From: a virus
Strand: one strand, 5' to 3'
Length of the DNA stretch: 64,000 nt
IMG/VR virus record: IMGVR_UViG_3300007512_001412
Span: 13,326 to 77,325 of that record
Shown: piece after piece, positions 35,201-58,233 of the stretch
Layout: each line of letters begins with the position of its first letter
How positions within the stretch are numbered: position 1 is the first letter of the stretch
Program-made: the position numbers and the translations under genes
The notes under the pieces: model-generated
The model's input: the letters and a program-made list of their open reading frames with translations, nothing else
What the model was told of the DNA's origin: nothing
Database searches by the model: none

Positions 35201-38200
35201 CTTCGGTCTGCGCCGTGTAGGGCGGGTTCTCGTTCCGCAGCCCACCGGGTCGCGTGGGGGGGTTCTTCGGGTTCAGCGGGTGGAGCGCGACACGGTGGAG
35301 CGCATCCAAATCCAACGCGGATCGCGCGTTCGCCTTGGCGATCGACTCGATCCACTGGTTGGGATCATACGGATCGGGGTAGCGCAGGACGACCCAGGTC
35401 TTCGTGTTGCCGCTCCGTCGCTGCGCCGATCTCAAGTCGGGGCGGCCGGTTGCTTCAAGTCCCCGGGGCTGGTGCCCCGACGCGACGTACTTCACGGCGA
35501 AGCCGCTCTCTCTCACCCCGGCGAACGTGGTGGGAGAGCCAAGGGGCTGCGTGGTGACGGTTTCCTTCGCCAGCAGCCCCAGGAGCGCCTTCGACGCCCG
35601 AATGAGGCGTTCCCGCAACTCGTAGCCTTCGGTGTAGCCCACCGACGTCGTCACGGCGCGGCCGCTCGCGGACTTGCGGCCCGTGTCGATGTTGATCGAC
35701 TTGAACAGGCTCTCCTCGATGGACTGGAGGATCGCGGGGGTAGCGAGCACGTGCTCCCGCACGGACGCATCGTCCAGGGGGAGCGCGTCGAGGCGGGACG
35801 CGGGGACGAACACCGCGTCGAAGCGCCCGGAGCGGAATTCCGCCCACTTGTCCGCGACCTCCGTGGGGGTTTCATCCTCCGCCTTGAGTGGAGGCGGGGC
35901 CTGCGTCTTGCGGATCGGGGTGCCGTCGTCCTTGGTCCCGACCGTGTAGACGCCGCCGTGCAGCGCGATGAATTCGCCTTCCCGGCGCGACATTTCCGTC
36001 GCCACGCGGCGCACCTCGATGGCGTAGAGCGTGGGGTCAGCCTTGAGGTCCGCGATCGTCGCCTTGAATTCCACGCGGGAGACAGCCTTCCTGGCAGGCT
36101 TCCCCTTGCTCACGACGGTGACCGGCTTGACCTGGGATCGGACCCCCTTGTTCCCCGCCGCGACCGCCGCTTCGGTGCGCCGGAAGGCTTCGTGGAACAA
36201 CTCCTGCGCCAACCGCACGGAGCGGAGCCGCAGCGGGTGTCGCTTCGCGCGCTTGTTCGGGATCTTGGTCGGGGGTCGGTACTTCTTGCCGATGATCTCG
36301 ACCCGGTAGTCGGGAAACTGCTTGAGCAGATCCGCCGTCCACTTCGGGATCAGCGTGTTGGGGACGACGAACACCGGGCGCTTGGCAAGGCCCCGCTGCT
36401 TGGCGTACGCCATCGCCAGGATCGCCACGTTGGTCTTGCCGACGCCGACGCCCATCGCCAGGAGCCCGCCGCCTTCCTCGACCAGACGGCGCGCGCCCGC
36501 CGACTGGTAGGGGTACGGGGCCATCTTGTTCGACGTGCCGTCCGGGCCGACGCCTTCATAGTCGTCCTTGGTCACCGGCCCCGCCCGGACCAGCCCCTCC
36601 GCGACGTTGTCCGTGTCGTACTCGGGCAGGACGTAGCTGCGCCAGCGCACGTTGTACGCATGGACGACCTGACGTCGGTGCTCGACGCCCTGGTCGGAGT
36701 CGAGGAAGGAGAGCAGGGAGGTGTTGAACCCGGAGGCGTACGCTTCCCGCTGCGCGTCCTTCCGCTTCGCCGTGATCATGGACACGGCAGCACCGATCCG
36801 CCGTGGCAGATCCGTGGGGGGGATCGAGGGGAACATCGCGCTCAGGTTGGCCCAATCCTGCTGCGTCTTGTTCGGCCTACAGATATCCGCGAGGTCGCCC
36901 AACGTCCACGTGTGGCCCGCCTGGACCGCCACGTTCCCCAGGAGAGCCTGGAGGGTCGCTTCTCCTTCGGGCCACAACTCCGCGCGCCATCCCGGCCCCT
37001 TCATGCGCGAGAGGACCGGGACCGACGTCAGTGCGTTGGGGCTGAAACAGGAAACGTCGCTGTTGAGGTAGCCCAGGAGGTAGCGGGTCCGGTGGCTGAT
37101 CGAGTTCTGGTAGCCGCTCTCCCACGCGGACTTCGACGCGAGGGCTGCGTACGGGATCAACGCGAACACGTACACCCGATCCCCGGGCTGGTAGGCCGCG
37201 TCCGGGTTCAACTCCCGAAGCTCGCGCAGCGGCATCCGGTAGGAGGCCGCGATGCTCTCCGGGGTGTCCCCCTGCTCGACGGTGTAGGGGCGCTCCCACG
37301 CCAGGGACGTAGCGAACATGCCGCGCCGCAGGCGCACGCGCACGGGCGCGTAGTCCCTGCCCGTGTTCTCCGCGTCCCTGATCTCCCCGAAGTCCCTGAT
37401 CCGCTTGTACGTCCACACGTCCACGTAGCCCTTGCCCGTCCTGTACAGGTCTTCTTCGGTCAGAACCGGGGCGGCGTCGGGGAGCCAGTAGTCGAGGCGC
37501 TTGTTGTGCGGCGGGGACAGGGCTTCCCCGGTGGGGACGTCTTCGGGGACGTCCTCCGTGTCGAAGGTGTAGTCGGTCCCCAAGGTGGTCTTCGACCAGT
37601 CGCCGGGGTGCGGGATCTGCACGTACTGGTTGATCCAGGCGTTGAGCGTTTCCACCGGGAGGTACGTGTCGCGGACGTCGAGCGCCGGGGCCAGATCCTC
37701 CGCCCAATCGGCGTCCCGCGTGTACCCGGCAAACTCGTCGTGCTGCACCATCCCCGCCGTGTAGAGGAACGCGGGGAGCGCGGGGATCGGCGGGGGCTCA
37801 CCCGCTGCCAGCACCGTGTCCAGCCGCGTCTTCTTGTTCGTCAGGAGCCGGGAGTAGTAGTCCCGCGTGGGCATCATGCGCGAGAGCACGGGGGAGCCGT
37901 GGAGATCGGCGTCGAAGCGCCAGCCGTGGTCGTGGAACAGGGCGTTCAGCAGGCTGGTTCCCAGCGTGTCCCGATCCACGTCCGGGTCGGACGAGGCCGA
38001 CACCCACTCGTCCACGAACGCATCGATGTACAGGACCCCTTCGCCCGCCCGGTACATCCAGAGGGCGGAGGCTTCCAGATCCTCTGCGACGTCCCACGGC
38101 CCCGGGTACTCCGTCAACGCCGCAGGCATCGTGCGGAATTCGGGGATCACGTGGCCGTTCGTGTCGAAGACGTGCAGGAAGGTGTCCAACTCCGTCGCCG

Positions 38201-43320: not shown

Positions 43321-44160
43321 TCAACTCCTTGAAGACGTCCGCGCTGACGCCAGCGCGAGGATACCAAAGACAGCAGCGACGACTGCGATGATCGGGACAG
43401 CGGTGGAGACAGCAGTCCCCGCCTCTTGAACGGACTCGATTGCACCCCGGGCCGACGCGACTGCGCGTTCCAGCTTGTCCAGGGTGTCCTTGAGCTTGGG
43501 CCACAGCCACAAGCCGACTGCCAGGGCGAGCACGCCGACGAGCACGCCGACGAGGATCGGGGCAACCCCGAAGGAATCTTCGACGGGCGTCCCGTCACGG
43601 AGGGCGGGGCCGATGGCGGCTCCCAGGTTGATGCCGTCGTAGTAGGTCGCCTCGACGTCATGCAGGATCGGGAGGACCCCCCCGATGCCTTCGACGTCTT
43701 CCATGCCCCGGGGGAGCATCGGCTTGCCGCTCATGCTGTCGCGGGGCGTCAGCCCCATCGAGAGCGCAGCCATCCACCCGTACCACTCGCGGTTCGCCTT
43801 GCTCCACACGCGCGCGGAGAGGTGAGGCTTCCCGTTGTCGAGGACCGTCCGCATCTTCGCCATGTGGTCGAGGACGACCCGGAAGATCGCGAAGGCGCGT
43901 TGCTGCTCCTTGTCGTCCTTCCCGATCCGCTCCGCGATCGGCACGGCGGCTTCCAACGCCTTGCGGGCGATGGGCCGCATGGTGGAGAGGTCGCGCCACC
44001 ACGCCAGGACACTCTTGCCCTCCTGCGCGGCTTCGCGTCGCACGCGCTCCAGGCAGAAGGGCGCGGGGAGGTCGCAGGACAAGGCCCCCAGGCGCACGCC
44101 GACGACGGCACCGTCCCGTAGGACCGCCTCGTCTTCGTACATGCGGGGGGCGTACGTCAT
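43321..44160 (-). CDS. Membrane protein with two C-terminal TM segments
   Basis: SFGVAPILVGVLVGVLALAVGLWL and a second hydrophobic segment. Confidence 0.7.
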   Translation of the reverse strand: MTYAPRMYEDEAVLRDGAVVGVRLGALSCDLPAPFCLERVRREAAQEGKSVLAWWRDLSTMRPIARKALEAAVPIAERIGKDDKEQQRAFAIFRVVLDHMAKMRTVLDNGKPHLSARVWSKANREWYGWMAALSMGLTPRDSMSGKPMLPRGMEDVEGIGGVLPILHDVEATYYDGINLGAAIGPALRDGTPVEDSFGVAPILVGVLVGVLALAVGLWLWPKLKDTLDKLERAVASARGAIESVQEAGTAVSTAVPIIAVVAAVFGILALASARTSSRS

Positions 44161-44163
44161 GCC

Positions 44164-45003
44164 CTACTTGACCTTCCCCTTGATCATCAGGAGTCCACCG
44201 ATTCCGACCAGTGCCGCCACCGCCATGAGCCCCATGCCGCCTCCCGCGTCACCGCCGCGTTCCTTGAGCGCCCGGACGTCGGCCAGGAGCGCGTGGCTGT
44301 ACGCCGTGCCGCCCGCGAGCGCGAACGCCACGCCTGCGGAACGGAACCGGATGCCGCTGGAGGAGGCGGCGATGCCGCCCAGCGACGTGACGCGCTGGTC
44401 GGTGCCGTCGTAGACCGCGCCCGATCCGCCGCCCAGGAAGCCCGACGCGGCCTCACGCCACCGCTGATCCAGGGCGAGCCAGTCGGAGCCCCGGTTGGGG
44501 ATCGAGTCGAGGACGCGCCGCGCGTCCGTCAGGTTGCGGAGCATCGACTTGACGGCGAACTTGATCTTCTTCCGGGGAGCCGACCGGATGCCCTGCGCCT
44601 TCGCCGCCACCGCTTGGAGCGCCGACGACGTCCACGCGGACGCCGGGAGCCACTGGCCCGCGCCCCACGTGTAGGGGGCAGGGCGTCCCGAGCTGCCGCG
44701 TCCCGGGCGTCCCGGGCGTCCCGGGCGTCCCGGGCTGCCGCGTCCCGGGCGTCCCGACCCACCCTCTTGGATCAGGGGAGCCCCCTCCTCCGCGAGCGTG
44801 TTCATCAACCCCTGCCCCTGGTTGGGGAAGATGAAGTCGAGGATCTGCTGTCCGCGACCCCCGCCGCCGCTCTGGACGTTGCTGCTCTTGCCGCCGCCGC
44901 TCTGGACGTTGCTGCTCTTGCCGCCGCCCTGCTGCGACAGGGTGTTGACGATGTTGTCGAAGAAGCCGCCGACCTGTGTGCGTTCGCCGTAGTCGTACAT
45001 CAT
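44164..45003 (-). CDS. Gly-rich repeat protein with C-terminal TM anchor
   Basis: GGGKSSNVQS x2, PGR repeats, terminal TM plus KGKVK. Confidence 0.7.
   Translation of the reverse strand: MMYDYGERTQVGGFFDNIVNTLSQQGGGKSSNVQSGGGKSSNVQSGGGGRGQQILDFIFPNQGQGLMNTLAEEGAPLIQEGGSGRPGRGSPGRPGRPGRPGRGSSGRPAPYTWGAGQWLPASAWTSSALQAVAAKAQGIRSAPRKKIKFAVKSMLRNLTDARRVLDSIPNRGSDWLALDQRWREAASGFLGGGSGAVYDGTDQRVTSLGGIAASSSGIRFRSAGVAFALAGGTAYSHALLADVRALKERGGDAGGGMGLMAVAALVGIGGLLMIKGKVK
44681..44757. repeat. 9-bp tandem repeat (CGTCCCGGG) encoding RPG
   Basis: Directly visible. Confidence 0.85.
44861..44928. repeat. 30-bp tandem repeat, about 2.3 copies
   Basis: CCGCCGCCGCTCTGGACGTTGCTGCTCTTG repeated exactly. Confidence 0.9.
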
Positions 45004-45009
45004 GAAGCC

Positions 45010-45813
45010 TCAGAATCCGGTGTTGAAGTAGGTTCCGCTGCCCCACCCCGGGTAGCGAGAGAGATCGCCTGCGGGCGCGAGGTCGCGCGGCTGCGCGTAG
45101 TTGGTGCTCCACCCTTGCCGGGTGGGGAGCGTGTTCTGGATGCGGTCGTAGCGCGGGCGCACGGGGGGCGCGGGGAGCGGGTTCATGTGAACCGCCAGCG
45201 GGGACTGCCCGCCGCGCCGCGCCTTGGCCCGGTCGTACGCCGGATCAGCGACACCCTGCGCGCCGAAGGGGTTGCGGGCCGATCCGTCGTCGCGCGCTTC
45301 CGCCTCACCCTGGCGGAAGTAGTAATTCCAGTCCTTGCCGCCGAAGCAGTCTTGGCCGTAGGGCCAGCCGCGAGGCGTGCGATCGACCCACCAGTCATGG
45401 ACCTCCCGATCACCGGGCACCGCACCGAAGGCAGCGTCGAACAACGCTTCTTCCTCCGTGAGCACGGCGTCCTGTAGGAGTCCGCTCTCGATGAAGTCGA
45501 ACCAGCCGATCGCCGGCTGCACGTCGAGCACGCGCCGGGAGGCCCCGTGTGCGAGCACGCGCGAGCCGTCCGGGTAGCCCCACAGCGCCACGCCCCGCCT
45601 CCGATCGACGCCCTCCACGCGCGCCACGCCGCCAAACTGCGGCACGGCGGCGTGAAGCCACCGGGGCACCGGCACGGGCCGACCGCGCAGAGCGGCTGCG
45701 CGCTTCGTCGCCTCGCGCTTCGCCACGTCCCCCTGATCCGGTCCCCCGTCGAGGGATCGGTTCATGGCGACGAGCAGGAAGCCGACGAGGGCCGCGACGG
45801 GGAGGAACGGCAT
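45010..45813 (-). CDS. N-terminally anchored hypothetical protein
   Basis: AGGAG RBS, N-terminal TM, several FG motifs. Confidence 0.7.
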   Translation of the reverse strand: MPFLPVAALVGFLLVAMNRSLDGGPDQGDVAKREATKRAAALRGRPVPVPRWLHAAVPQFGGVARVEGVDRRRGVALWGYPDGSRVLAHGASRRVLDVQPAIGWFDFIESGLLQDAVLTEEEALFDAAFGAVPGDREVHDWWVDRTPRGWPYGQDCFGGKDWNYYFRQGEAEARDDGSARNPFGAQGVADPAYDRAKARRGGQSPLAVHMNPLPAPPVRPRYDRIQNTLPTRQGWSTNYAQPRDLAPAGDLSRYPGWGSGTYFNTGF

Positions 45814-45822
45814 CGGAGACTC

Positions 45823-46107
45823 CTAGCCGTAGTACCCGGGGTAGTACCCCATGCTCGCCTGCTGCATCTGCTCCCGGGCGCGCGCCTTCGCGCCGCCCGA
45901 CCCGGGCTGCATCTGCTGCATCTGCTCCATGCGGCGGCGCTTGACCTCCTCGCGCTTGTCCACGTCGGAGGCACCGCCACCGCCGCCTGCGGGCGGGAGG
46001 CTGGGCGGGAGATCAACCGTGACGTCCACGGACGCGGCCTGGGAACGGCGGGCCAGGAGCAGCAGGGCTGCGCCGCCGCCGAGCAAGTACATGGTGGATC
46101 GCTTCAT
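45823..46107 (-). CDS. Small membrane-anchored protein
   Basis: AGGAG RBS. YLLGGGAALLLLARR. Confidence 0.7.
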   Translation of the reverse strand: MKRSTMYLLGGGAALLLLARRSQAASVDVTVDLPPSLPPAGGGGGASDVDKREEVKRRRMEQMQQMQPGSGGAKARAREQMQQASMGYYPGYYG

Positions 46108-46256
46108 GGTGTCTTTCTCCTAGGGGGTGTTCATCGTGGGAGGGTGTCCATCGGCATCCCGAACCTGCGGGACGTCATCTTCCAGAGTCTCTTCACGCAG
46201 AGCAGATGCACCGACACGGTTCATGTGGGCTTGCCACTTTTCTCTCTGATAGCTCA

Positions 46257-46757
46257 TCACGGCCTCCTGGGTGTTTGAGTAAGAAGATTTCGGTACTGCT
46301 TAGGTGTAATCCTCAAGGTTGGCCCAACCTGCTGTGCGCGAGGGTACTTACCCTTGACTGCCTGCCACCCCTTTCGAGGACCTGCCCCAGGTCGATAGCC
46401 TTCGTCTACGAAGCCCAGCCAAATGCGGAAGGCAGGAGACTTCAGAGCGTAAATGAGCCACCCACGGCGGGGGATCCCGTTACGGTCATTCCCTGCGTTG
46501 ACTGCTTGAGCAAGAACGCGCCCTCGGTACACAGCCTTACCGAAGGTCGCGGACAGCCGACGGCCGAACGCGGAGTAGTGGACGAGCGCGTGACACTTGG
46601 CGTGTTCCCACCCCGCGGCGTACGCCGCAGCCTGCCACGATCCGGCCTTGGGCTTGGGGAAGGCGTACTCCCGATCGGAGGCCACACCGGAGTTGTACGC
46701 GAAGTAGGCCGTCCAGCCCCGCGCCCGCCAGTCCTTCTTGTCCACGCCACCGAACAT
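46257..46757 (-). CDS. Basic hypothetical protein with lower-GC 3' half
   Basis: Coupled start. Begins MFGG. Confidence 0.55.
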   Translation of the reverse strand: MFGGVDKKDWRARGWTAYFAYNSGVASDREYAFPKPKAGSWQAAAYAAGWEHAKCHALVHYSAFGRRLSATFGKAVYRGRVLAQAVNAGNDRNGIPRRGWLIYALKSPAFRIWLGFVDEGYRPGAGPRKGWQAVKGKYPRAQQVGPTLRITPKQYRNLLTQTPRRP

Positions 46758-47986
46758 CAGGTCATCCCTCCGCCGAAGTCGAGGTTGGTCGCCTCCGTGC
46801 CGAAGTCCGGGCCGACCCCTTCGACCCCCGTGATCTCCGTCAGGGAGTTCGCGTCACGCACGGACCATGACTTGTCCTGATCCATGTCCGCGCCGCCGAA
46901 CACGTCACCGCTGAACTCGTCGGCCAGAAGGCGCGCGGTGTTCCGGCGCAGCCGTTCCTCCGCGTACTCGTCCGCGTACGCCTGCGCCTGGGGCTGCGGC
47001 TGCGTGGGCGGGATCACGTTGACCTGATAGACCCGCTTGCTGATCCTGTACCCGCCGACCATGGCCGTGGTCCCGAACCTCGCAGACGACTGCGACGGGA
47101 TGAACGACGGCTTGGACAGCGACTGCGACGGGATGAACGACGGCTTGGACAGCGACTGCGACGGGATGGACAGCGACGGCTGCGACGTGCCCGCCGGGGC
47201 CAGCCCGCCGGGGTAGTAGTAGCTGGTGAAGCTCACCGGGCGGACGATGAAACGCCAGCCGCCCTTGCGGGGGACGGAGAAGCCCACCTCGCGGCTCAGG
47301 ATCCGCCGTGCCGCCTCGCGCGCGTGTCCCGGGTTGGGGGCGGGGAGCGTGATCCTCCAGACGTCCTGGCCTCCGGGGGTCACGAACCAGCGCCCGCCGC
47401 GCGTCTGCGGGATCGCCTGGGGGACGACTGCCGGGGACACGGGGACGTTGGCGTCGGTGAACCCGGGCAGCGTCTTGTTGAAGGGCGAGCCCTTGCTGCT
47501 GTCGATGAACGACGGATCGGCGGTCTTGTTGAACGACACGTTGCTGGTCAGCGCGCCGAAGCCGCCCTCGCACGTGGCGCACCCGAACAGGTTGGGGTCC
47601 CAGCCTTCGGGGACCTCGCCGGGGCGCACCATGCCTGCCGGGGGGACGCCCCACTGAGGCGGGAGGTTCAGACCGGCGGGGATGCGTCCGAAGGCGGATC
47701 GAGCCATCGCTTCCTTGAACTGCTCCTCGTCGTTGCGGCCCAGGGCCTCGATCGCGTCGCGCTGCCACGTCGGCGGCACGTAGCGGTAGGTGCGCGTGCT
47801 GCGCCGCCGCTTCTTGTGGGCGTGGAACTGCGCCTTGTGCTCCCGGGCGGCTTCCCGCGCGAGCCACGCCTGCGCGGTGGTGTGCCAGGAGAGATCCGGC
47901 CCTCCGAAGCTGTCACCCGCGAAGTGAACCCCCGCGCGCTGGAGCCGGTAGGCCGCTGCGGCGTCGATGGCATCGGTCTTGAACAT
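46757..47986 (-). CDS. FG-motif-segmented hypothetical virion polyprotein
   Basis: GGAGG RBS before ATG 47986. Many FG motifs and an internal repeat. Confidence 0.7.
   Translation of the reverse strand: MFKTDAIDAAAAYRLQRAGVHFAGDSFGGPDLSWHTTAQAWLAREAAREHKAQFHAHKKRRRSTRTYRYVPPTWQRDAIEALGRNDEEQFKEAMARSAFGRIPAGLNLPPQWGVPPAGMVRPGEVPEGWDPNLFGCATCEGGFGALTSNVSFNKTADPSFIDSSKGSPFNKTLPGFTDANVPVSPAVVPQAIPQTRGGRWFVTPGGQDVWRITLPAPNPGHAREAARRILSREVGFSVPRKGGWRFIVRPVSFTSYYYPGGLAPAGTSQPSLSIPSQSLSKPSFIPSQSLSKPSFIPSQSSARFGTTAMVGGYRISKRVYQVNVIPPTQPQPQAQAYADEYAEERLRRNTARLLADEFSGDVFGGADMDQDKSWSVRDANSLTEITGVEGVGPDFGTEATNLDFGGGMT
47087..47168. repeat. 33-bp tandem repeat, about 2.5 copies (LSKPSFIPSQS)
   Basis: Directly visible. 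Confidence 0.9.
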
Positions 47987-49995
47987 CAGGAGCCTCCAAT
48001 GCGGCGCTGCGCGCCTAGGTTCGCCGGGGAGGGCCACGCGAAGTGACCGGCGAGGTTCTTCCGCAGGTTCCGAACGGCTCGCGCGAGCGCGCGCGGGTCG
48101 GTCTGCGGTGTTGCGGCGGCGAGCACTCGGATCTGCGCTGCCACCCGGGCAGGATACTCCCCCAATTCGCCGTTTCCGTCCAGCATCGCCGCTTCCTCTG
48201 CAAGCCCCTCCGCGCACATGAGGTGCTTGCCGATGCAATCGGGGCACTGACGCCGGGGATCGGTGAGGTGCTGCTCCAGCAGGATCAACTGCTTGCACAC
48301 CTCGCGCATGTTGAAGCGCGGATCGCGCAGGGGAAGGAGTCCGTCCTTGTCCAGCATGGCTGTCTCCCCACCGAATCCGCCCACGCTCCAGACGGAGCCC
48401 TTCGGGATGATCGAGGTCTGCTCCGACAGCACCTTGAGGATGCCCCCGCCCGGTCCCTGGCCCGGGAGCACGGGGATGCCCCGTCGCTGACGCTCCTGCG
48501 TGAACGCCCAGGACTGGATCGACTGCGCCGACTTCCCGATCGCTTCCGCGAGCCGCATCGCCAGGAGCGCGGTGACGGCAGAGGCCGCGTGGATCTTGAC
48601 CGGCCCCTGCTCCGACTGGACGGTGGCCCCCTTGTGGGACACCTCGCGGCCAAACGCGGTGCGCTCCGCCGCGCCCATGACGTCGCTCGCCTTGACCCCC
48701 TGCGCCGCGATGTACTCGCGGATCTGACCGATGGTCGGGCCGATGGGGTACTTCAACTCGCGCTGCTGCGCGACGGAGAGCCCGTAGACCCACAGCGGGA
48801 GTACGATCTGGTCGGGGAGGATGCCGTTGATGTTCAGCCGCAACGCGGACGTCAACGCCGCGTTCCGGGTCGGGAATGGCGCAACGCCCCGATCCACATC
48901 CACGCGGAACTCCGCCTGCGGGAACATCATCTTGAGCTTGGCGGGCGAGAACATGTCGGTCGGAGCGGACTCCAACGGACGGTTGAGCCCCATGATCGCC
49001 GCGAGGTCGAACAGGTTGCGGTAGACGTCGAAGCCTGCGAGGACGTCCCAAAACTTCACGGCCATGCGCCGCCAGCCGACGACGTTGCCCGTGTTGCGGA
49101 GCCCGGGGCTGTTGATATCCATGATGCCGCGCGTCCGCGTGCGGATCCGCTCGACTTTGTTCTCCAACTGCCGGATGCGCCACTGTGGCTTGCGCTTGGC
49201 GTTCTTCAACTGCTGACGGGCCGCGTTGTACTCCTTGAGCGTGCGGTCGAGGCCCTGCATGGCCTGCCCCCACTTGTTCCGCGCCCGCCGGTACGCGACG
49301 ACGGGATCGTCCTCGCGGATCACGGCGGCGGAGATCAACTCCATGACGCCGACCACCGCCTTGGCGACCTCCGCGACGGCAGCGCCGCCGCCCTCGCCGT
49401 CCCCCTGGCCTCCGCCGCCCTTGTAGGCGGCCGACACGTTGGCCACCATGGAGCCGTAGACGACTACGCTGGCGCTGTCCCCTTCGATCCGCACGCCGCG
49501 CCCGCGCGTGGCGACGTAGCCGCCGAACGGGGCGTCGGCGGAGGGGCCGATGGACGTGGGAACGAGCGGAGCCGCCTTCACGGGCGCACCGTCCGCGCGC
49601 TTCGCGCCCTTGAAGAACAGGTCCAGGGCGGTCTGCGCGGCCTGCGCGAGTCGGCGGTGCCGCCACCGCTGCCCTTCCGACGTACCCCGGCGGGTCTGAT
49701 CCAACTGCTGCCCCGCGCTCTGGACGTCCACGACGGCGTCGTTGAGCGCGTTGAGCGCGGCCTGCGCCTGCCACACCTCGTCAGCGGTCGGGACCATGCC
49801 CTTCGCCGCAGCCTGACTCCACGCCGACTGGTACGCCCGCAGGAGGCTCTGAACGGACGAGTCCACACCGGGCATCGCGTCCCCGATGACAACGGGGTGC
49901 ATCGCACCGAAGCCGTCTACGAACACCTCGCGCCGCCCTTCCTCGTCAGCGAGGCGCGGGTCGCGGGCGATCTTTCCCCGGTGTGCCCAAGTCAT
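47986..49995 (-). CDS. Large helical hypothetical virion protein with C-terminal Cys/His module
   Basis: 669 aa, coiled coil. C-terminal EVCKQLILLEQHL...CPDCIGKH follows a GGFGG motif. Confidence 0.75.
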   Translation of the reverse strand: MTWAHRGKIARDPRLADEEGRREVFVDGFGAMHPVVIGDAMPGVDSSVQSLLRAYQSAWSQAAAKGMVPTADEVWQAQAALNALNDAVVDVQSAGQQLDQTRRGTSEGQRWRHRRLAQAAQTALDLFFKGAKRADGAPVKAAPLVPTSIGPSADAPFGGYVATRGRGVRIEGDSASVVVYGSMVANVSAAYKGGGGQGDGEGGGAAVAEVAKAVVGVMELISAAVIREDDPVVAYRRARNKWGQAMQGLDRTLKEYNAARQQLKNAKRKPQWRIRQLENKVERIRTRTRGIMDINSPGLRNTGNVVGWRRMAVKFWDVLAGFDVYRNLFDLAAIMGLNRPLESAPTDMFSPAKLKMMFPQAEFRVDVDRGVAPFPTRNAALTSALRLNINGILPDQIVLPLWVYGLSVAQQRELKYPIGPTIGQIREYIAAQGVKASDVMGAAERTAFGREVSHKGATVQSEQGPVKIHAASAVTALLAMRLAEAIGKSAQSIQSWAFTQERQRRGIPVLPGQGPGGGILKVLSEQTSIIPKGSVWSVGGFGGETAMLDKDGLLPLRDPRFNMREVCKQLILLEQHLTDPRRQCPDCIGKHLMCAEGLAEEAAMLDGNGELGEYPARVAAQIRVLAAATPQTDPRALARAVRNLRKNLAGHFAWPSPANLGAQRRIGGS

Positions 49996-50657
49996 GCGCC
50001 CAAGTCCTTCCCTTGCGCGAGGCGGGTGCGCTTGCGCTTGCGTGCCATGCCCTCACCGTACCCGTGGGACACGTCCCGAAGGACGACGAACCCGATCCCG
50101 GCTGCGATCAGGAACGGCCACGGCCCCAGGCCCGGGGGGGCGGGCGGGAGGCCCGCCTGTCCCGACCGGGTGGCGATGGCTTGCTGCACCGCGTCGGCCA
50201 ACTCGTTGACCGGGACGTTGTGCGTCAGCTTGTTGACCTTGTCGTAGATCGCTTGCAGCTTGTTGAAGTACCCCTCGCAGTCCATCACGTGCGCGCCCAG
50301 GCCCACGGCGGTCGCAATGTCCCGCAGGGACCATGTGAGGTTCCACGCGGGACCGACCGGGGGGAAGCGAAAGACCTTCTCCGCGATCTCGCCCAGGCTC
50401 CCACCGCCGTAGAGCCAGCGCATGACGACGCCCCGCTCCGGGCTGCTCATGTACCAGCAGTCCATCCCGGCGTAGTTGCGGGGGGACGACTTGATCATGC
50501 GCTCCGCCCGGATCAGGAGCCCCTGCGCGAGCGCGTGGACGTCGCTGGGGAGCCGACCGGCGCGGAAGGATCGGTCCAGCCCACGCTGCAACGCGAGGTT
50601 GTTCCGCAGCGCGTTGCCCTGCGCGATCTTGCTCACGTTGTCCACGCGCCGCGTCAT
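49992..50657 (-). CDS. Protein with C-terminal TM and basic tail
   Basis: GLGPWPFLIAAGIGFVVL. ATGA overlaps on both sides. Confidence 0.7.
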   Translation of the reverse strand: MTRRVDNVSKIAQGNALRNNLALQRGLDRSFRAGRLPSDVHALAQGLLIRAERMIKSSPRNYAGMDCWYMSSPERGVVMRWLYGGGSLGEIAEKVFRFPPVGPAWNLTWSLRDIATAVGLGAHVMDCEGYFNKLQAIYDKVNKLTHNVPVNELADAVQQAIATRSGQAGLPPAPPGLGPWPFLIAAGIGFVVLRDVSHGYGEGMARKRKRTRLAQGKDLGA

Positions 50658-50857
50658 CGTCCGCTCCCGTGCAACAGGTAGTTGCGCCCGTTGTAGAGGA
50701 CGGTCAACGCCCCGGACACCGCCAGGACGCCCCCCGCGACCGGGCGGTCCTTCGCCAGCGTGCTTCCGGCCCACACCATGAACGGCCCCAGGACGAACAC
50801 ATCCATGAGCCGCACCGACTGCGCCTTGCCGTGGATCGGGTGGGACAGTGCGGTCAT
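50654..50857 (-). CDS. Small two-TM viral membrane protein
   Basis: KAQSVRLMDVFVLGPFM...GALTVLYNGRNY. Confidence 0.7.
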   Translation of the reverse strand: MTALSHPIHGKAQSVRLMDVFVLGPFMVWAGSTLAKDRPVAGGVLAVSGALTVLYNGRNYLLHGSGR

Positions 50858-51252
50858 CGACGTCTCGGGTGGATCGGGCCCACGGCGGGCAGCTCGACCG
50901 CGTACGCGGCGTCTTCCGCGTCGCGGTAGTCGCTCCACGCGCCCAAGGATACCCACTCGTCCCCCTGCCAGTGCCATGCCTCCCACGGGGTCGAGACGCC
51001 CGGGGTCGTGTCCTTGACGACGGCGACGTCGTGGAAGCCCTGCATCTGAAGCCCTGGCTCGCCAGGAACAGCGGCGAAGGAGTGCCACAGCTTCCAGGGG
51101 TGGGCACGGAGCCGGTTCGCTCGCGCGAGCATCTGCTTGAGGATGTGGGTCTTTGCCGGGGTGGGAGCCGCCTTCGTCTTCTTCGCCACCGCGAGGACGC
51201 CGATGAAACCGATCAGGTACAGGAGGTTCACGTTGCTCTGTGCGCGGCTCAT
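50854..51252 (-). CDS. N-terminally anchored membrane protein
   Basis: LLYLIGFIGVLAVAKK. Confidence 0.65.
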   Translation of the reverse strand: MSRAQSNVNLLYLIGFIGVLAVAKKTKAAPTPAKTHILKQMLARANRLRAHPWKLWHSFAAVPGEPGLQMQGFHDVAVVKDTTPGVSTPWEAWHWQGDEWVSLGAWSDYRDAEDAAYAVELPAVGPIHPRRR

Positions 51253-52226
51253 GCGGCTACCCCGCTCTCACGCTGCTCGCGCAGGCGTACGAGGACCGCG
51301 CCGAAGCCCGTGCCCCTGTGCCGCTTGCGGATCTCCTTGAGGATCGTGTGGACGTCGTCGGCGTACCAGCCGTAGTTGCTGCGCCACTCCTGCGCGGCGG
51401 CGCTGTTCCAGCCGTACCGCTCGCCCATCGCCTTCGCGTTGCGGTCGGCGGTGTCCCGGGCGGCGCGGGCGTCCAAACGCGCGTGGTGCAGCGCGGTGAC
51501 GTCGTACCGGGCGTACATCGCAGCGCGAGCCGCGAAGGGGTACGGCCCCTTCCCCATCGCGCCGAAATACGACGCCCGGGAGCGCGGCCCCAGGTCGAGC
51601 CCGGTGTCGAGCGCGGACGCCCACCACAGATCCCCGCCGAACATTGCCCGCTTGTGTCCCAGGATGCCGTTGTAGACCTCCGACACCGCAACCCCCGCGA
51701 TCCCGGCGCGTTCCTCCGCGCTGTTGCCGGTCAGCATCCCCAGGCGCGCGGACGGGTCGTCGCGGTACTCGCGGCCCCCGATCCAGTAGCGCGTGATGCA
51801 ATGGTACAGCGACGGCTCCCCGGGCTTGCCGCCCGTCGAGAGCATGACTTCGGCCCGGATGGATCGGGGACGGAGCCGCATCGCAGCGGCGTAGCCCTGG
51901 TCGCCGGGGTACTTGACCGGGTCGCGGGGATCGGCGGGCCGCATCGCGCGCCAGCCCCGGGCCAGCAACTCCCCTGCACGGGCCGCTGCGAGCGCATCGC
52001 AGTCCTCATGCCCCTCCATGAGCAGGTTGAGGTAGTCGCACCAGATTTCGCCCTTCTCGACTTCGTACCGGACGCCCGATTCGTACAGGCCCGGGAGCGG
52101 CTTCTCCCCCTTGGTGCGGGCACGCTTGTCGTACGACAGGAAGATGCGCGCGTTCTCGCGCGCCAGCCAATTCAGGAGGCGGAGAGCGGCTTGCTCTTGG
52201 AAAGCCAGCTTGACGACGATATCCAC
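51249..52226 (-). CDS. Transglutaminase-like cysteine hydrolase, putative maturation protease
   Basis: LYESGVRY, EDCDALAAARAGEL (Cys), YHC (His), DDPSARLGM (Asp). Confidence 0.65.
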   Translation of the reverse strand: MDIVVKLAFQEQAALRLLNWLARENARIFLSYDKRARTKGEKPLPGLYESGVRYEVEKGEIWCDYLNLLMEGHEDCDALAAARAGELLARGWRAMRPADPRDPVKYPGDQGYAAAMRLRPRSIRAEVMLSTGGKPGEPSLYHCITRYWIGGREYRDDPSARLGMLTGNSAEERAGIAGVAVSEVYNGILGHKRAMFGGDLWWASALDTGLDLGPRSRASYFGAMGKGPYPFAARAAMYARYDVTALHHARLDARAARDTADRNAKAMGERYGWNSAAAQEWRSNYGWYADDVHTILKEIRKRHRGTGFGAVLVRLREQRESGVAA

Positions 52227-52230
52227 GGCG

Positions 52231-52962
52231 TCACACGTACGACAGTTGGAAGTCGAGGATCGTGGAGAGCAGGTTCGCCGGGTTGTTGTTGACGAGCCGT
52301 ACCACGGAGCCGGGGCCGATCGGGATCTGATCCATCGCGTCGGCAGCGATGGCGTGCTGCACTTGCCCCGTGGTGTCGAGCACCTGTACTTGGATCAGGG
52401 CGCGCTGCGCCGGGTTCTGCGTCAGGACGGACACCGACCGGGCGTAGGGCGGGACGTTGAAGTCCTCCTGTGCGCCCGGGAGGACCCCCCGCGTGCGGAA
52501 CGTCTTGTGGAGGTCGGTGACCTGAGCCGATCCCGAACCGTGGTCCTCGACGGTGCAGAACACGCGGTTGACCGCGTTGGCCCAATTCGCCGCACGGATC
52601 TGGAGCGTCTTGGCCTTGACGTAGAAGACGACGGACCCGCCGCCCGCCGTGAGCAGGAGCCGACCGGCGTAGCCGTCGCCCGTCGTCCACTCCGCCTCGA
52701 CTTCAAACGGGCGCGACTCCCCAAGGAGCCCGACGCGGCTCACCAAGTGAACGCGCCGATCCCATGCGAGGTTCGCCTCGCCGTTGATGACTTGCTGGTA
52801 CTGCGCCGCCGTGGGCGTGACCGGCTGTGCGCCGCCCGCGTTCACGGGAAGCGGGATGCTGTCCGCGCGATGCGAGAGCTTGGCCGCTGCGGGACACCGC
52901 AGCGTGCTGAACAGCAACTCGCGCGGGTTGACCGGACCAGCCGGGGGTGCGTAGCCGCCCAT
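52231..52962 (-). CDS. All-beta protein, candidate second capsid/penton protein
   Basis: Alternating beta-strand pattern throughout, VPPYARSVSV, AGGAGG RBS, adjacent to the MCP candidate. Confidence 0.5.
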   Translation of the reverse strand: MGGYAPPAGPVNPRELLFSTLRCPAAAKLSHRADSIPLPVNAGGAQPVTPTAAQYQQVINGEANLAWDRRVHLVSRVGLLGESRPFEVEAEWTTGDGYAGRLLLTAGGGSVVFYVKAKTLQIRAANWANAVNRVFCTVEDHGSGSAQVTDLHKTFRTRGVLPGAQEDFNVPPYARSVSVLTQNPAQRALIQVQVLDTTGQVQHAIAADAMDQIPIGPGSVVRLVNNNPANLLSTILDFQLSYV

Positions 52963-53003
52963 GCGTCAACCTCCTACGCGGGTGTGGGTTCAGTCGCGTT
53001 CCT

Positions 53004-53131
53004 CGCCCCCGGTTGGGTCGGGGCCACCGTGGCGCACGGCGACCCCGACCCGCACGCGGGGGAGTAACCCCGTACCCGGGGCGCAGCGCGCGCGGACGGC
53101 GACACGCTGCGACCCCCAGGGGATCGGGTCG
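53004..53131 (-). other. Nested multi-stem RNA structure between the capsid candidates
   Basis: GGGTCGGGG/CCCCGACCC, CGCCCC/GGGGCG, GCGGGG/CCCCGT, CGCAGCG/CGCTGCG and CGACCC/GGGTCG stems. Confidence 0.5.
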
Positions 53132-53139
53132 GATCGGAC

Positions 53140-53796
53140 CTAGACCGCGCCCGGGCCGCAGCCTGTGGTGCCGCGCTTGAGGCCGACGAGGGTGACGATC
53201 AACTCCGTCGTGGTGGTCGAGGCCGGCAGGTTGGCCGCGATGGTGATATCGAGGCCAGCCGCGATGGCCGCACCCTTCACCAGCCCACGGACGAACGACG
53301 CGGTGCCGAAGACCGCGATCGGGATGCCCGTGGCGTTGTTGAAGATGCGCCGGTCACCGAAGTCGATCGCGGTGATCGTCCACCCGCCCACGCTGCCCTG
53401 GAACGTCACGTCCTCCGCGACGAAGTCGAACTGCGGGCGGATCGTGACGGTGTTCGCGCCGGCATCCGGGGCCTGACCGGTGGAGCCCGACAGGAGCGTC
53501 TTCTGGACGACCTGCTTGGCCTTGCCGGCGGCGTTCCAGGGCTTCTGGCGGTGGGAGGGGCCACGCGGGACGAACCGCCGCACGGACGGGGGCATCACCG
53601 CCGCGCCGAGGGACGGGTAGTCCATGTCACCGAAGTCGTCGTAGTCGTAGCCCAGGGAGGCGTAGTCCATCGCACCCAGGTCATCATCGACCAACTGCAA
53701 GCCGTAGCTCATGTCTGCTCCAAGAGAGAGGGGAGGTCCCGATGTAGGTGCTCCGATGACCGCTTGCCCCTTGGCGTTGCGGTAGATCCGGTGCAT
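53140..53796 (-). CDS. Candidate single jelly-roll major capsid protein with acidic N-terminal propeptide
   Basis: GGAGG RBS. About 115-aa C-terminal beta domain (TVTIRPQ..F.AE...WTITAIDFG...GIP..F...GLDITIAAN...TLVG). The N-terminus has repeated LG/YG/FG motifs. Confidence 0.55.
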   Translation of the reverse strand: MHRIYRNAKGQAVIGAPTSGPPLSLGADMSYGLQLVDDDLGAMDYASLGYDYDDFGDMDYPSLGAAVMPPSVRRFVPRGPSHRQKPWNAAGKAKQVVQKTLLSGSTGQAPDAGANTVTIRPQFDFVAEDVTFQGSVGGWTITAIDFGDRRIFNNATGIPIAVFGTASFVRGLVKGAAIAAGLDITIAANLPASTTTTELIVTLVGLKRGTTGCGPGAV

Positions 53797-53880
53797 CGAC
53801 ACACGATTCCTCCAGCACTAGTGGGCGATGATGCCCGTGCGACGGCGAGCACCACGCTCACCTCCGCGATTTCCTGATGC

Positions 53881-54993
53881 TCAGATGGCGCAACCGCACC
53901 GTCCGAAGCGTCCGAAGTAGTCCGCGTAGGGATCGGCCCCCACGCTGTTGCCGCCGATGCCGTCCACGACGCCACCGAACACGTACCCGAAGCTGTCGTC
54001 CGCGAGGGCCGATCCCGCGCGGAGGAACGCCTCGTCCTGCGAGGCGTCAGCCTGCGCCGACGACCAGTCGGCGGGAGTCTCCGCCGCGTAGAAGTACCCC
54101 TCCGGGGTCTGGCCGTACGCCGCCTGCGGGGGCAAGTAACCCGGCACCCCGGGCTGCGGGGGCTGCGGGGCGTACTGCTGCGACTGCTGCGCCCAGGCCG
54201 CTTCCGCCGCGTCGAAGACCCGCATCTGCTCGTCCTTCCAGACGACCCAGGCGTCGTTCGCCTTCTGTAGCTCGCGGGCTTCCGCCTTCACCGCCTGGAG
54301 GTTCGCGACGACCCCCCGCAGATCGGCTACCGTCTTCTGCGCGCGCTTGCTGCGGGCCTTGCCCTGCGCGGCCAGCTTGTCGTACTTGCGGCGGAGGCTC
54401 TTGTACTTGCGGCGGAGGTGCGCCGCTCTCTTCACCCCGGATTCGCGCTGCTTGCGAATCACGACGAGCTTGTCCTTGGCGACCTTGACGCTGCGGCGGA
54501 GGGTCTGGATTTCCGCGTGGCGGCGGCGAGCCTTCTTCTTCCAATCCGACGCGAGGTCGCGGGCGTCGTAGTAGCGCCGCTTCCACCTAGGGCACACGCC
54601 CCCCCGACGCCGCCCGAACCACGCGGCGGCTGCGTCCGTCTGCGCGTCCGTGTCGGCCTGCCATGCGTTGCCGCCACTGAACAGGGCCAGCCCGTTGTCG
54701 TCGCCGTCCGTGGCGTCGTCGGTGTCAGCGGCCCACGCGCCGAAGTTGTTGGGGAACGCCGCACGGTCGAGGCGTTCTTCGTCGATCCCCCGGAAGGGGT
54801 AGGCATCTTCGTCGAGCCCCTGGAAGGGGAATGCCTGCTGAACAATGTCGAACGCGCCCATGCTGCTCCCTGCCCGCCCGAATTCGGGCGCGAATCGAAG
54901 TGCTGTGTGATCCACCGTGGGCCGACCCGCCCCGTCGAACGACACCGGGGCTACGCCCAGGTAGTGCAGTCCGGTGGGGTCGGGTCGGCTCAT
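53881..54993 (-). CDS. Acidic-basic-acidic coiled-coil protein (scaffold/core precursor candidate)
   Basis: Basic coiled coil flanked by acidic arms rich in FG/IG/VG motifs. Confidence 0.7.
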   Translation of the reverse strand: MSRPDPTGLHYLGVAPVSFDGAGRPTVDHTALRFAPEFGRAGSSMGAFDIVQQAFPFQGLDEDAYPFRGIDEERLDRAAFPNNFGAWAADTDDATDGDDNGLALFSGGNAWQADTDAQTDAAAAWFGRRRGGVCPRWKRRYYDARDLASDWKKKARRRHAEIQTLRRSVKVAKDKLVVIRKQRESGVKRAAHLRRKYKSLRRKYDKLAAQGKARSKRAQKTVADLRGVVANLQAVKAEARELQKANDAWVVWKDEQMRVFDAAEAAWAQQSQQYAPQPPQPGVPGYLPPQAAYGQTPEGYFYAAETPADWSSAQADASQDEAFLRAGSALADDSFGYVFGGVVDGIGGNSVGADPYADYFGRFGRCGCAI

Positions 54994-55018
54994 GGCGTGT
55001 CTTCCTTCGTCCTTCGAC

Positions 55019-55534
55019 CTACAGGCCGCGTCCCGCCATCGCCGGGTGCATCATGTGCGGGGCGTGGGCGTGCTGGTGGTAGCCGATCTGCGGGGGGCGA
55101 CCGGAGAAGCCCGAGAAGCCCTCACCGGCACCCATCTTCTGGCCGATCTCGTAGACGGCGGCACCGAGGATGCCGTTGCCGAAGTTGAGCGCGTGCGCGC
55201 CCGCCGCCGACTCGCCGTTGAACGACTGCATCAGGCCGTAGCCCGCGAGGACGCCGCCCAGGAGCAGGCGACCGTCGATGTTCCACAGCTTGATCTTGTC
55301 GGTGCCGTACTTCGCGGACAGCGTGGACGTGGCGAACAGGGCCGACTGCGTCTCCAGCGTGGCGACGACGGCACCCATCCCCTCCTTGTGGGAGAGGTTG
55401 ATCTTCTTCATCTGGTTCTGGAGGCGCTGAACCTGCTGCTGCGCCTTGCTCACGCCGCCCTTGGCGGTGTTGCGGCGACGGCGCGTGGTGGTGCGCTTGC
55501 GGGTTCCTGCGGCGACGGAGAGGGGGTTTGCCAT
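55019..55534 (-). CDS. Basic N-terminus membrane-associated protein, first gene of the late operon
   Basis: RKRTTTRRRR, hydrophobic helices, C-terminal FSGFSG..IG..MAG. Confidence 0.7.
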   Translation of the reverse strand: MANPLSVAAGTRKRTTTRRRRNTAKGGVSKAQQQVQRLQNQMKKINLSHKEGMGAVVATLETQSALFATSTLSAKYGTDKIKLWNIDGRLLLGGVLAGYGLMQSFNGESAAGAHALNFGNGILGAAVYEIGQKMGAGEGFSGFSGRPPQIGYHQHAHAPHMMHPAMAGRGL

Positions 55535-55914: not shown

Positions 55915-56178
55915 GTGACAAACGACAAAGACGGCGGCGACCGTGCCGACAAGCGCGCGGCTGATCTCGCAGAAAATCTCGCGGAGCACGCGGTTCACAC
56001 CGCGAATGAGGCCGCAGACAAGATGGCGGAGGCGATCTCAGCCGGGATTTCCGCTGCTGCGCTCCGGGTCGCGGGGCCGTTGAGCAAGGCCGTGCGCGAC
56101 GGGGGGGACACGATCCAGGGGTTCCTCAACGGTCTGTTCGCCCCGATGTACGACGAGGACGACGAGGACTCCCCATGA
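55915..56178 (+). CDS. Small helical hypothetical protein
   Basis: GGAG RBS, ATGA overlap downstream. Confidence 0.5.
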   Translation: MTNDKDGGDRADKRAADLAENLAEHAVHTANEAADKMAEAISAGISAAALRVAGPLSKAVRDGGDTIQGFLNGLFAPMYDEDDEDSP

Positions 56179-57677
56179 GCGGGCGCATCGACCGCTGGAC
56201 CGAGCTTCGGGACGGACTCCGCCGCCACGCGACGGAGATCGGCTACCTGTCGCTGACCACGCACAACTCTGCGGGGCGCGGCACGCAGATCGGACGCCTG
56301 GATCTGACGCCCCGGATGCTGCGGCATTGGCTCAAGCACGGCCCCGCCATCGAGGACGAGTACGACGACGGGCTTCGGGAAATGCTGGAAGCCCTCGCGG
56401 CGAAGGCACCCACGCCTCCCGCGCCGTACCGCGCTGCCTCCGTCGAAGAAGAAGACCTCGTTGACGACGACGAGGACGAGGAAGACGACGAAGACGAGGA
56501 GGGCGAAGACGAGGACGACGTCGTAGACGAGGAAGAAGATGAGGAGGAAGACGCGGACGCGGACCCCGCCGACCGCCCGCTGACGCCGGATCAGATCGAG
56601 AGCGCGGTTCACAAGTGGATGCTCGACCTCTGCGGCAAGAACACGGTCGGGACGGAGCCGGGTCGGTTCCGGGTGCGCTTCTACAAGCCCAAGGGCGGGC
56701 AATTCTGGAGCCTCGCGTTCCGGTACTTCCCCGACGACCTCCCGATCCCGGCCCCCCAACAGCCCGCACAGCCCGCACAGCCGGCAGGCCCCCACGCGCC
56801 GTTGCCGCACTCGCCCATCCCGCAGCAGTCCCTCGTCGGACCGCCGCCCATCCCCGGACCGGCCCCGGCCCCCGGAGCCACCTTCGGACCGCGCATGACC
56901 GACGAGAGCCACAACCCGTTCGCCCCTGGTGCGCCGCCGTTCCCGCAGGCTCCCGCGCAGGCCCCCGGGCAGGCGCAGGCGGGCGTGCCCCCGTACGGGA
57001 CGCCTCCGTACGGAGCGCAGCCCCCGGTCCCGTCCAACGGCAACGGACACGGCGCGTTCCCGTCCGTGCCGCTGCCCCCGTCGCAGCCGCCCCCGCCCGG
57101 GAGCGCCGCGTACCAGGGGATCAGCCAGCCGGCGCAGGATGCGATGGACGCGCTGTTCCACAACTACCGCAACTTCGGTGCGCTGGTGTTCAACACGCTG
57201 TCGCAGATCACGCGCCAGTACGACTACATCCTCACGCAAGTCGGCGGGGCGCTGTCGGACAGCCGGGGCTACGCCGATGACCTCCTGGGGACCGTGTATG
57301 AGTTGCGGACCGACATGCTGGAGAAGCAGCAGGAGTTGGGCGCGGGCGCGAACACGAACGCGCTCAAGGCCGCGTTGGGCGGGCGTGCCATCGATCAGCT
57401 TGGCCTCCTGGGACGCTTGCTGGTGATCCAGAAGCTCAAGGAGTCGGGCGCGTCGGAGGACGAGATCAACACCGCGTTGGGCGCGATCTCCCCGAACGCG
57501 GAGAACGCCCCCGCTACCGACCAAGAAGTGGACGACCTGGGGGAGTGGCTGGTAAGCCGCCCCGACGTCATCCAGACCCTCAACGACAAGAACGTGCGGG
57601 AGTACCTCAAGGACCCCGGCAACGTGGATCAACTCCGTCAACTCGCAAAGGCGCTTGCGCCTCCTTCGGGCGACTAG
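56175..57677 (+). CDS. Hypothetical protein with poly-acidic and Pro/Gln-rich regions
   Basis: 500 aa, high GC3. Confidence 0.75.
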   Translation: MSGRIDRWTELRDGLRRHATEIGYLSLTTHNSAGRGTQIGRLDLTPRMLRHWLKHGPAIEDEYDDGLREMLEALAAKAPTPPAPYRAASVEEEDLVDDDEDEEDDEDEEGEDEDDVVDEEEDEEEDADADPADRPLTPDQIESAVHKWMLDLCGKNTVGTEPGRFRVRFYKPKGGQFWSLAFRYFPDDLPIPAPQQPAQPAQPAGPHAPLPHSPIPQQSLVGPPPIPGPAPAPGATFGPRMTDESHNPFAPGAPPFPQAPAQAPGQAQAGVPPYGTPPYGAQPPVPSNGNGHGAFPSVPLPPSQPPPPGSAAYQGISQPAQDAMDALFHNYRNFGALVFNTLSQITRQYDYILTQVGGALSDSRGYADDLLGTVYELRTDMLEKQQELGAGANTNALKAALGGRAIDQLGLLGRLLVIQKLKESGASEDEINTALGAISPNAENAPATDQEVDDLGEWLVSRPDVIQTLNDKNVREYLKDPGNVDQLRQLAKALAPPSGD

Positions 57678-57702
57678 CCCCTACACCGTGGAGAGAAACC
57701 CC

Positions 57703-58233
57703 GTGGCGAACCAGAACGACCCGAACCAGAAGCGCGTCCCCCCGTGGAAGACGCCGTCCCCCTTCCTGTCGGACCTCCAGACGTTCGACGCCTACCACCT
57801 CCTGATGGCGGATCGAGAGTTTCGCGCGCAGGCGGCTGACGAGTGGGCGACGATCTCCGAAGCCGACAAGGACTTCATCCGAACGAAGCTCCAGTTGGCC
57901 CAGGTCGAAGGGCTCGATGCCGTGCGGCGTCGGCTCGACCACCAGATCGGGATGCTGGAGCAGATCCGGGTGAGCACGCGCCTGACGGTGGACGCCACGC
58001 GCCTGACGGTGGACGCGCTCAAGGGCGGTGCCCGCCGACCGGCCCCGCAGCCGCAGACCGAGGCCCCACAGGAGGCCCCGCAGAACGGCGGCAGCGTCGG
58101 CGGCGTCATCTACGACGAGTCCGACCCGTTCGCGGCGCTGGACGCCAGCCCGTCCGGTGTGGCGGTCCCGTCGCTGGACGGCACCCCCACCGCCGAGGGT
58201 GAGTTGCTCGACCAGGGCGGCGCTCCGGTCTAG
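57703..58233 (+). CDS. Hypothetical coiled-coil protein
   Basis: GGAGA RBS. Contains a 21-bp tandem duplication at 57975-58016 (TRLTVDA x2). Confidence 0.65.
   Translation: MANQNDPNQKRVPPWKTPSPFLSDLQTFDAYHLLMADREFRAQAADEWATISEADKDFIRTKLQLAQVEGLDAVRRRLDHQIGMLEQIRVSTRLTVDATRLTVDALKGGARRPAPQPQTEAPQEAPQNGGSVGGVIYDESDPFAALDASPSGVAVPSLDGTPTAEGELLDQGGAPV

Follow-up and report, generated by a model that had tools for sequence, protein, structure and literature searches.

The window analysed here covers the final 64 kb of one 77,325-bp virus record (IMGVR_UViG_3300007512_001412, G000; G+C content 66–72%), and our subject is the block of genes at its positions 43321–55534. We read this block, with a probability of roughly 0.55, as the virion-morphogenesis module of an undescribed tailless lineage outside Caudoviricetes that is associated with Myxococcota; its virions would have a jelly-roll shell as in PRD1- and SPV1-type viruses, probably together with a lipid membrane. 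The evidence that carries this reading is a pair of adjacent genes with predicted double and single jelly-roll folds, a set of small membrane-anchored proteins in the same operon, a complete relative in which genes of the tailed-phage particle were sought and not found, and integrated elements of about 15 kb that keep the jelly-roll pair.

A minus-strand operon encodes two predicted jelly-roll proteins

Genes were called by third-position GC. This gave 14 co-directional minus-strand genes running from 55534 down to 43321, with intergenic gaps mostly of −4 to +25 nt and none above ~180 nt, and so bears out the late co-directional operon proposed in the original prediction, which had been made from the letters of this stretch. 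The operon continues beyond 43321 to about 27.3 kb. Two raw open reading frames (ORFs) had off-frame N-termini: the '1005-aa' ORF contains a real gene of ~411 aa (46757–47992) and the '371-aa' ORF one of ~226 aa (49992–50672). None of the 14 module proteins matched Pfam or PHROGs at E<0.01, and Megablast of the gene block against phages and plasmids returned no match. Two of the genes encode the candidate shell proteins:

53140..53802, minus strand: w220, single jelly-roll (SJR) protein, candidate penton or second capsid protein
52231..52962, minus strand: w243, compact double jelly-roll (DJR)-like protein, candidate capsomer (major capsid) protein

For w243, 63 relatives were collected by exhaustive profile search, and an AlphaFold2 model built from 54 aligned relatives scored a pLDDT (predicted local distance difference test) of 91.9 and a pTM (predicted template-modelling score) of 0.86. 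The model is all-beta, as had been proposed for this 243-aa protein, and consists of two jelly rolls of ~100 residues each (residues 28–142 and 147–243), so that its predicted structure is DJR-like. Taken singly, the domains give generic fold matches (GOLD, YPM, SID1). The structures that align over both domains are all DJR proteins, and whole-protein matches include P3, PR772, phiCjT23, STIV and FLiP. The model thus suggests two vertical jelly rolls in one chain, the arrangement of PRD1-like capsid proteins; the fold scores of the module's jelly-roll proteins are middling.

The DJR matches of w243 also include the GH172 structure 8ic8 (ExoMA1), an enzyme described as a trimeric DJR (PMC10509167), and published work identifies GH172/DUF2961 as the cellular homolog of DJR capsid proteins (PMC8812541). 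From these enzymes w243 differs in its much smaller size and in its location, a mobile-element operon rather than a sugar-utilisation locus; no GH172 sequence signature or carbohydrate-gene context was found for it, in a check that did not extend to the active site. We detected no sequence similarity between w243 and any known DJR capsid protein, and tblastn against phages gave no match. An ESM Atlas search returned weak leads only, and Foldseek against BFVD a mixed list of matches that was not decisive. The predicted three-copy complex scored 0.41 against a mark of 0.42 and is not used as evidence here. The DJR-like gene is duplicated in two loci, L017 (1739–3461) and L028 (5498–6819), and four separate stretches of a metagenomic protein of 1935 aa (P0048) match the w243 profile; by this sequence match it may be a tandem array of the w243-type unit.

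The gene for w220 lies directly upstream of w243, as an SJR gene lies near the capsid gene in PRD1-like viruses. The protein had been proposed to be all-beta (53140–53796). The predicted structure does have a jelly-roll fold, and the beta-sandwich is confined to residues ~98–212 of 220, following a disordered arm. The SJR domain is confidently modelled and matches viral capsid and turret jelly rolls, with an SPV1 capsid chain as its best fold match; on the model, it resembles an SPV1 VP4-type SJR capsid protein and is a candidate penton. The arm consists of an acidic block of DxLGAMDYASLG-type repeats and then an Arg-rich block, and several of its positions are nearly invariant across 51 sequences. 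Acidic hydrophobic-Gly motifs recur in w220 and in other module proteins (DDLGAMDYASLG, DDFG, DSFGG, VFGG, MFGG). Comparison of the SJR and DJR-like families by hhalign detected no relation between them, and two SJR paralogues are present in the complete relative described below (43524–45118).

Tailed-phage genes were not found in the contig or in a complete relative

We scanned the 13.3 kb of the contig outside the window (L001) and the window itself against Pfam and PHROGs, the window scans covering all but a few ORFs, among them 24935–25969 and 26065–27297. No terminase, portal, HK97 capsid, tape measure or tail gene was recognised in the scanned proteins, in keeping with the original prediction. 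Other Pfam matches in this set were a PolA-UDG fusion, an SMC-like ATPase, tyrosine and serine recombinases, a glycosylation cluster, DUF3987, DUF2201/VWA, a MoxR AAA+ protein, helicases and an Amidase_2 endolysin. The two ORFs named above lie, on both strands, in an island of lower G+C content (24000–28000; 59–62% versus ~69%). Genes for the MoxR AAA+ protein, a DUF2201 metallopeptidase and a VWA protein are conserved between the present contig (window 28618–32209 and, in its outer part, L001 8088–9584) and the complete relative (2983–8429).

The contig has no terminal repeat and truncates a gene at its left end. Circular closure was rejected, as the ends fail to join and the left-end gene is cut, and CheckV puts completeness at 48%. 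A search with the 243-aa family led to a complete relative (G001), an IMG/VR contig of 105,738 bp that has a terminal repeat of 51 bp and is rated 100% complete by CheckV. It carries the whole module in the same gene order and shares most genes with the window's contig, including replication genes and a giant helicase. PHROGs and Pfam searches of 76 unassigned G001 proteins identified ribonucleotide reductase, methyltransferases, Nudix, endolysins, Sak4 and SSB, and no terminase, capsid or tail family. Both genomes were also searched in six frames with hidden Markov models (HMMs); these searches gave positives in control genomes and returned nothing at E≤1 here for Terminase_6N, TerL_ATPase, Phage_portal or Phage_capsid, nor for FtsK_SpoIIIE or Pox_A32 (the A32-like packaging ATPase). 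The combination of terminase, portal and HK97 capsid that defines Caudoviricetes was therefore found neither in the scanned proteins nor by six-frame search. Apart from helicases, canonical P-loops are present only in the MoxR, SMC-like and Sak4-like proteins, and no unassigned P-loop protein is left over as packaging ATPase or terminase.

A match to phrog_15528, annotated 'portal', at G001 17266–17655 was rejected as a portal because the protein has 135 aa, aligns with profile positions 522–639 only and belongs to a family that also matches 14 of 14 control cellular genomes. This PHROG probably includes a housekeeping-type domain (possibly Nudix) by fusion and is a potential source of false portal calls. 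A conjugative plasmid or integrative and conjugative element was likewise rejected: a spare P-loop ATPase, of FtsK/TraB type or otherwise, is lacking, and the Pfam matches include neither a relaxase nor a type IV secretion family.

The tailed-phage-style replisome of the original prediction holds in part. PolA was confirmed, and Sak4 and SSB/DUF669 were matched only in the pooled G001 scan, which included homologs of window genes.

The module also occurs in compact integrated elements

About 10 metagenome loci, with G+C contents of 53–69%, have the module's genes in the same order, and relatives lie on contigs of 66–106 kb. A search of bacterial genomes with the Cys-His-Asp domain encoded in the module returned 64 loci, most of them labelled as Myxococcota or 'Deltaproteobacteria' metagenome-assembled genomes or carrying MYXO isolate names, and often situated in megabase-scale contigs with several copies each. 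The hosts are therefore probably Myxococcota, to judge from these labels, and an actinobacterial host, guessed from G+C content, was discarded in favour of this assignment. The closed 9.4-Mb Myxococcota chromosome OZ245034.1 (G002) holds seven copies of the Cys-His-Asp gene (at 730614, 1565381, 5228514, 6049171, 6780904, 8565514 and 9116833).

The chromosomal copies have a compact module consisting of a w171 homolog, the SJR protein, the DJR-like protein, a 170-aa protein, the Cys-His-Asp domain as a 149-aa protein, a two-transmembrane protein, a Lys-rich protein and a 1633-aa SNF2 helicase. Two elements of the closed chromosome are 88–93% identical over only 14.7 kb, with sharp borders, and others are 67–77% identical; just beyond the right border of one copy lies a gene for a 540-aa large serine recombinase. 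Because the similarity of the two copies is limited to 14.7 kb, the lineage spans integrated elements of ~15 kb and genomes of 77–106 kb. Its core includes the SNF2 helicase, the Lys-rich protein and a membrane protein, and the large forms add a phage-like replisome (PolA, Sak4, SSB, SMC). Since the 14.7-kb elements keep this core, of which the helicase alone takes up about a third of their length, they leave no room for a head-tail module.

Membrane anchors, the Cys-His-Asp domain and neighbouring genes

The other genes of the module and its surroundings are, in operon order:

55019..55534, minus strand: w171, which opens the operon; N-terminus rich in Arg, then hydrophobic stretches rich in Gly; weaker transmembrane (TM) segment
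53881..54993, minus strand: w370, conserved N-terminus of ~50 residues, then a basic, coiled-coil-like low-complexity region
51249..52226, minus strand: w325, of which the N-terminal ~177 residues (51696–52226) are the invariant Cys-His-Asp domain
50854..51252, minus strand: w132, small, N-terminal TM anchor by hydropathy
49992..50672, minus strand: w226, C-terminal TM anchor by hydropathy
47986..49995, minus strand: w669, large conserved protein with a Cys-rich C-terminal domain (residues ~549–650)
46757..47992, minus strand: w411, Ser/Pro repeats and FGG motifs; poorly conserved, with weak matches in L018 only
46257..46757, minus strand: w166, small basic protein
45823..46107, minus strand: w94, small; N-terminus signal-peptide-like or a weak TM segment
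45010..45813, minus strand: w267, N-terminal TM anchor; kept in G001, L018 and L021
44164..45003, minus strand: w279, Gly-rich, C-terminal TM anchor; anchor kept in the G001 homolog g52901
43321..44160, minus strand: w279b, two C-terminal TM segments; homologs in G001, L021 and L026–L028
41439..43310, minus strand: w623, Lys/Ala-rich and basic, weak KOW motif; core gene just outside the block
32271..38942, minus strand: giant protein with LysM and the SNF2/ResIII N-lobe (Pfam ResIII, SNF2, LysM)
56175..57677, plus strand: w500, divergent, acidic and Pro-rich with a helical C-terminus; kept beside the module
57655..58233, plus strand: w192, downstream of w500; kept in G001, L018, L020, L021, L023, L027 and L028

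By hydropathy, TM anchors are robust in five proteins (w132, w226, w267, w279 and w279b, the last with two) and weaker in w94 and w171, which agrees with the earlier count of at least six small TM-anchored proteins. The anchors of both w279 and w279b are retained in G001, and the two-TM ORF of the compact chromosomal elements occupies the position of w279b. The operon's first gene, w171, is a core gene kept in G001, the metagenome loci and the compact elements. In w370, conservation across the family is limited to residues ~2–48.

The Cys-His-Asp domain of w325 belongs to the most conserved gene of the module, with 65–81% identity across loci. The proposed Cys-His-Asp protein was confirmed in that 7 homologs retain, without variation, C76 (in an EDCDAL motif), H142 and D156/157 of the 325-aa protein. 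Their order along the chain, Cys…His…Asp, is that of transglutaminase/papain-like enzymes and makes the N-terminal domain a candidate protease or cross-linker of this type. It has no Pfam match at E<0.01 and no sequence match in the PDB with a 7-sequence profile. The hydrophobic-Gly motifs noted in w220 and other module proteins could be cleavage or assembly signals for this enzyme.

Homologs of w669 are kept in G001, L018 (48% identity), L020, L021 and L028, and no match was found in the PDB or the ESM Atlas. PDB profile or sequence searches with the queries A2, w335, w325, w669 and A7 gave nothing significant, and nothing was found with query A6 against genome_contigs. The C-terminal domain (window 47986–48350) matches LR745208, L002 and L003. 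In L002, a 167-kb IMG/VR contig, the w669-type Cys-rich domain is a standalone 142-aa gene (9965–10393) directly downstream of a portal gene and near the large terminase and head protease genes. Another occurrence of the domain is in an uncultured huge phage of 485 kb (LR745208.1, 405813–406112). As relatives are carried both by tailed phages and by the present lineage, we regard it as a mobile virion-associated domain common to the two. The idea that w669 is itself a portal fused to this small domain was rejected, as it has no similarity to the L002 portal or terminase.

Outside the block, homologs of w623 adjoin the module in G001, the metagenome loci and the chromosomal elements, and the protein is a candidate DNA-condensing core protein. 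Of the loci that extend far enough to tell, most have an SNF2 helicase along with the module. In the present contig it is split into N-lobe and C-lobe genes ~33 kb apart on opposite strands, the C-lobe being a separate 1024-aa gene with a Helicase_C match (contig 9594–12668, in L001); elsewhere it is unsplit, with 3569 aa in G001 (60769–71478) and 1633 aa in the chromosomal elements. Homologs of w500 occupy the same divergent position in G001, in 8 metagenome loci and in some chromosomal copies. The protein has no Pfam or PHROGs match and is possibly a scaffold or assembly factor.

Alternative explanations

Two other explanations were weighed against a tailless jelly-roll virus. The block might be a chromatin module of a mobile element that has no capsid and moves by its recombinases, in which w220 would be a nucleoplasmin-like pentameric chaperone that loads the histone-like w623 onto DNA, with the SNF2 protein as remodeller and the Cys-His-Asp protein as a protease alongside. 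The company of a Lys-rich protein and an SNF2 helicase in most loci of sufficient length fits this, as does the failure to find a packaging ATPase, and the 15-kb form, present in seven copies in one chromosome and with a serine recombinase beside one of them, would suit a non-viral integrative element equally. Such a module leaves unexplained the DJR arrangement of w243, which is known from viral capsid proteins and GH172, and likewise the TM-anchored proteins, the endolysins and the full replisome of the large genomes; moreover, the Arg-rich block of w220 directly follows the acidic arm as in capsid-protein arms, and IMG/VR and CheckV treat both records as viral. On balance we consider it unlikely. 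A very divergent tailed phage, with unrecognisable HK97 capsid, portal and terminase, would make the jelly rolls decoration, fibre or receptor-binding proteins and the TM proteins agents of lysis or superinfection exclusion. Similar beta-sandwich domains do occur in 7-7-1 fibres, the HFTV1 turret and the capsid accessory chains of Pam1 and GP4, PolA, Sak4 and SSB are typical of tailed phages, and several large proteins have no fold models. This explanation has to contend with a complete 105.7-kb genome that yields no terminase, portal, capsid or tail match by Pfam, PHROGs or six-frame HMM search, with the want of a spare P-loop ATPase to serve as terminase, and with 14.7-kb elements that keep the jelly-roll pair and devote ~1/3 of their length to a helicase, so that a head-tail set cannot fit. 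The neighbourhood of the w669-type domain and a portal gene in the 167-kb tailed-phage contig speaks for it, and the dissimilarity of w669 to that portal speaks against. We judge it improbable, and more clearly so than the chromatin module.

The preferred reading, a tailless virus with a jelly-roll shell, is partly supported overall: both beta proteins are predicted jelly rolls, and terminase, portal and HK97 genes were found neither on the contig nor in G001. Several observations weigh against it. The window's own contig is incomplete, and the lineage is known from genes and predicted folds. There is no packaging ATPase of known kind, which is unprecedented for a 100-kb icosahedral virus with double-stranded DNA (dsDNA). 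The C-terminal domain of w669 has relatives, by sequence, that adjoin a portal gene in a tailed-phage contig, and a very divergent portal or HK97 protein may be hidden in w669 or in the several large proteins without a fold model.

A possible assembly route and comparison with known viruses

In a tailless virion of this kind, w243 would form the capsomers as a compact, putatively trimeric DJR protein, and w220 may serve as penton or second shell protein with its acidic/Arg-rich arm pointing inward. The small TM-anchored proteins would sit in a lipid vesicle inside the shell, as in PRD1, PM2 and SPV1, and the Cys-His-Asp enzyme might mature or cross-link virion proteins, perhaps at the hydrophobic-Gly motifs. 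DNA would not be pumped by a terminase or FtsK-type ATPase. One option is that the Lys-rich w623 condenses the DNA and that shell and membrane form around it, as in SPV1; another is that the module-linked SNF2 translocase moves the DNA. The bolder proposition, that this is a jelly-roll virus new at realm level which fills its capsid without a terminase or FtsK-type motor, either with SNF2 as packaging or delivery motor or by assembly around condensed DNA, is doubtful and speculative. If true, either route would let one capsid module scale ~seven-fold in genome size.

The module resembles that of PRD1-type viruses (Tectiviridae and Bamfordvirae such as PM2, FLiP, phiCjT23 and STIV) in having a DJR-like gene next to an SJR gene, as for capsomer and penton, and many small TM proteins in a structural operon; no tail, portal or terminase genes were found, and the 15-kb integrated form lies within the 7–18 kb published for prokaryotic DJR virus genomes (PMC5894146). 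It differs in that no FtsK/HerA (A32-like) ATPase was found, which places the lineage outside the classical PRD1-like group, in genomes of 77–106 kb that exceed the published range, in the SNF2 helicase, Lys-rich protein and Cys-His-Asp enzyme of the module, and in its probable Myxococcota hosts. A packaging ATPase is also missing from SPV1, FLiP and the Odin-group DJR viruses. The likeness to SPV1 (Portogloboviridae) thus extends from the fold of w220 to this absence. In SPV1, a protein shell and an underlying lipid layer enclose a nucleoprotein core (PMC8459092), and this core together with the missing ATPase agrees with the route proposed here, in which a basic protein condenses the DNA and the particle assembles around it. 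Unlike SPV1, which infects hyperthermophilic archaea and has a circular genome of ~20 kb, the present lineage is found in Myxococcota assemblies, in forms of ~15 kb (integrated) and 77–106 kb; an archaeal host and a ~20-kb circular genome were not found for it. The two have no sequence similarity, and the texts consulted mention no DJR protein for SPV1. The survey by Yutin and colleagues (2018) makes no mention of Myxococcota (PMC5894146).

The lineage may also be called undescribed, as had been suggested, because the literature searched holds no description of it. Nearly all large dsDNA phages are considered to be tailed and to have HK97 capsids, and to our knowledge only eukaryotic giant viruses have until now been known past the size barrier of jelly-roll capsids. 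The genomes reported here are about 5 to 10 times larger than is usual for tailless jelly-roll bacterial viruses. Because its DJR-like and SPV1-like SJR proteins are encoded side by side, the lineage bears on the debate over the origin of DJR capsids. If our reading is true, a jelly-roll lineage of up to 106 kb without a recognisable motor would break the size barrier in bacteria and offer a testable case of large-genome encapsidation without a terminase or FtsK ATPase. It would also add a host group, the Myxococcota, for which few viruses are known. That one closed chromosome carries seven integrated copies suggests that carrier strains could serve for induction.

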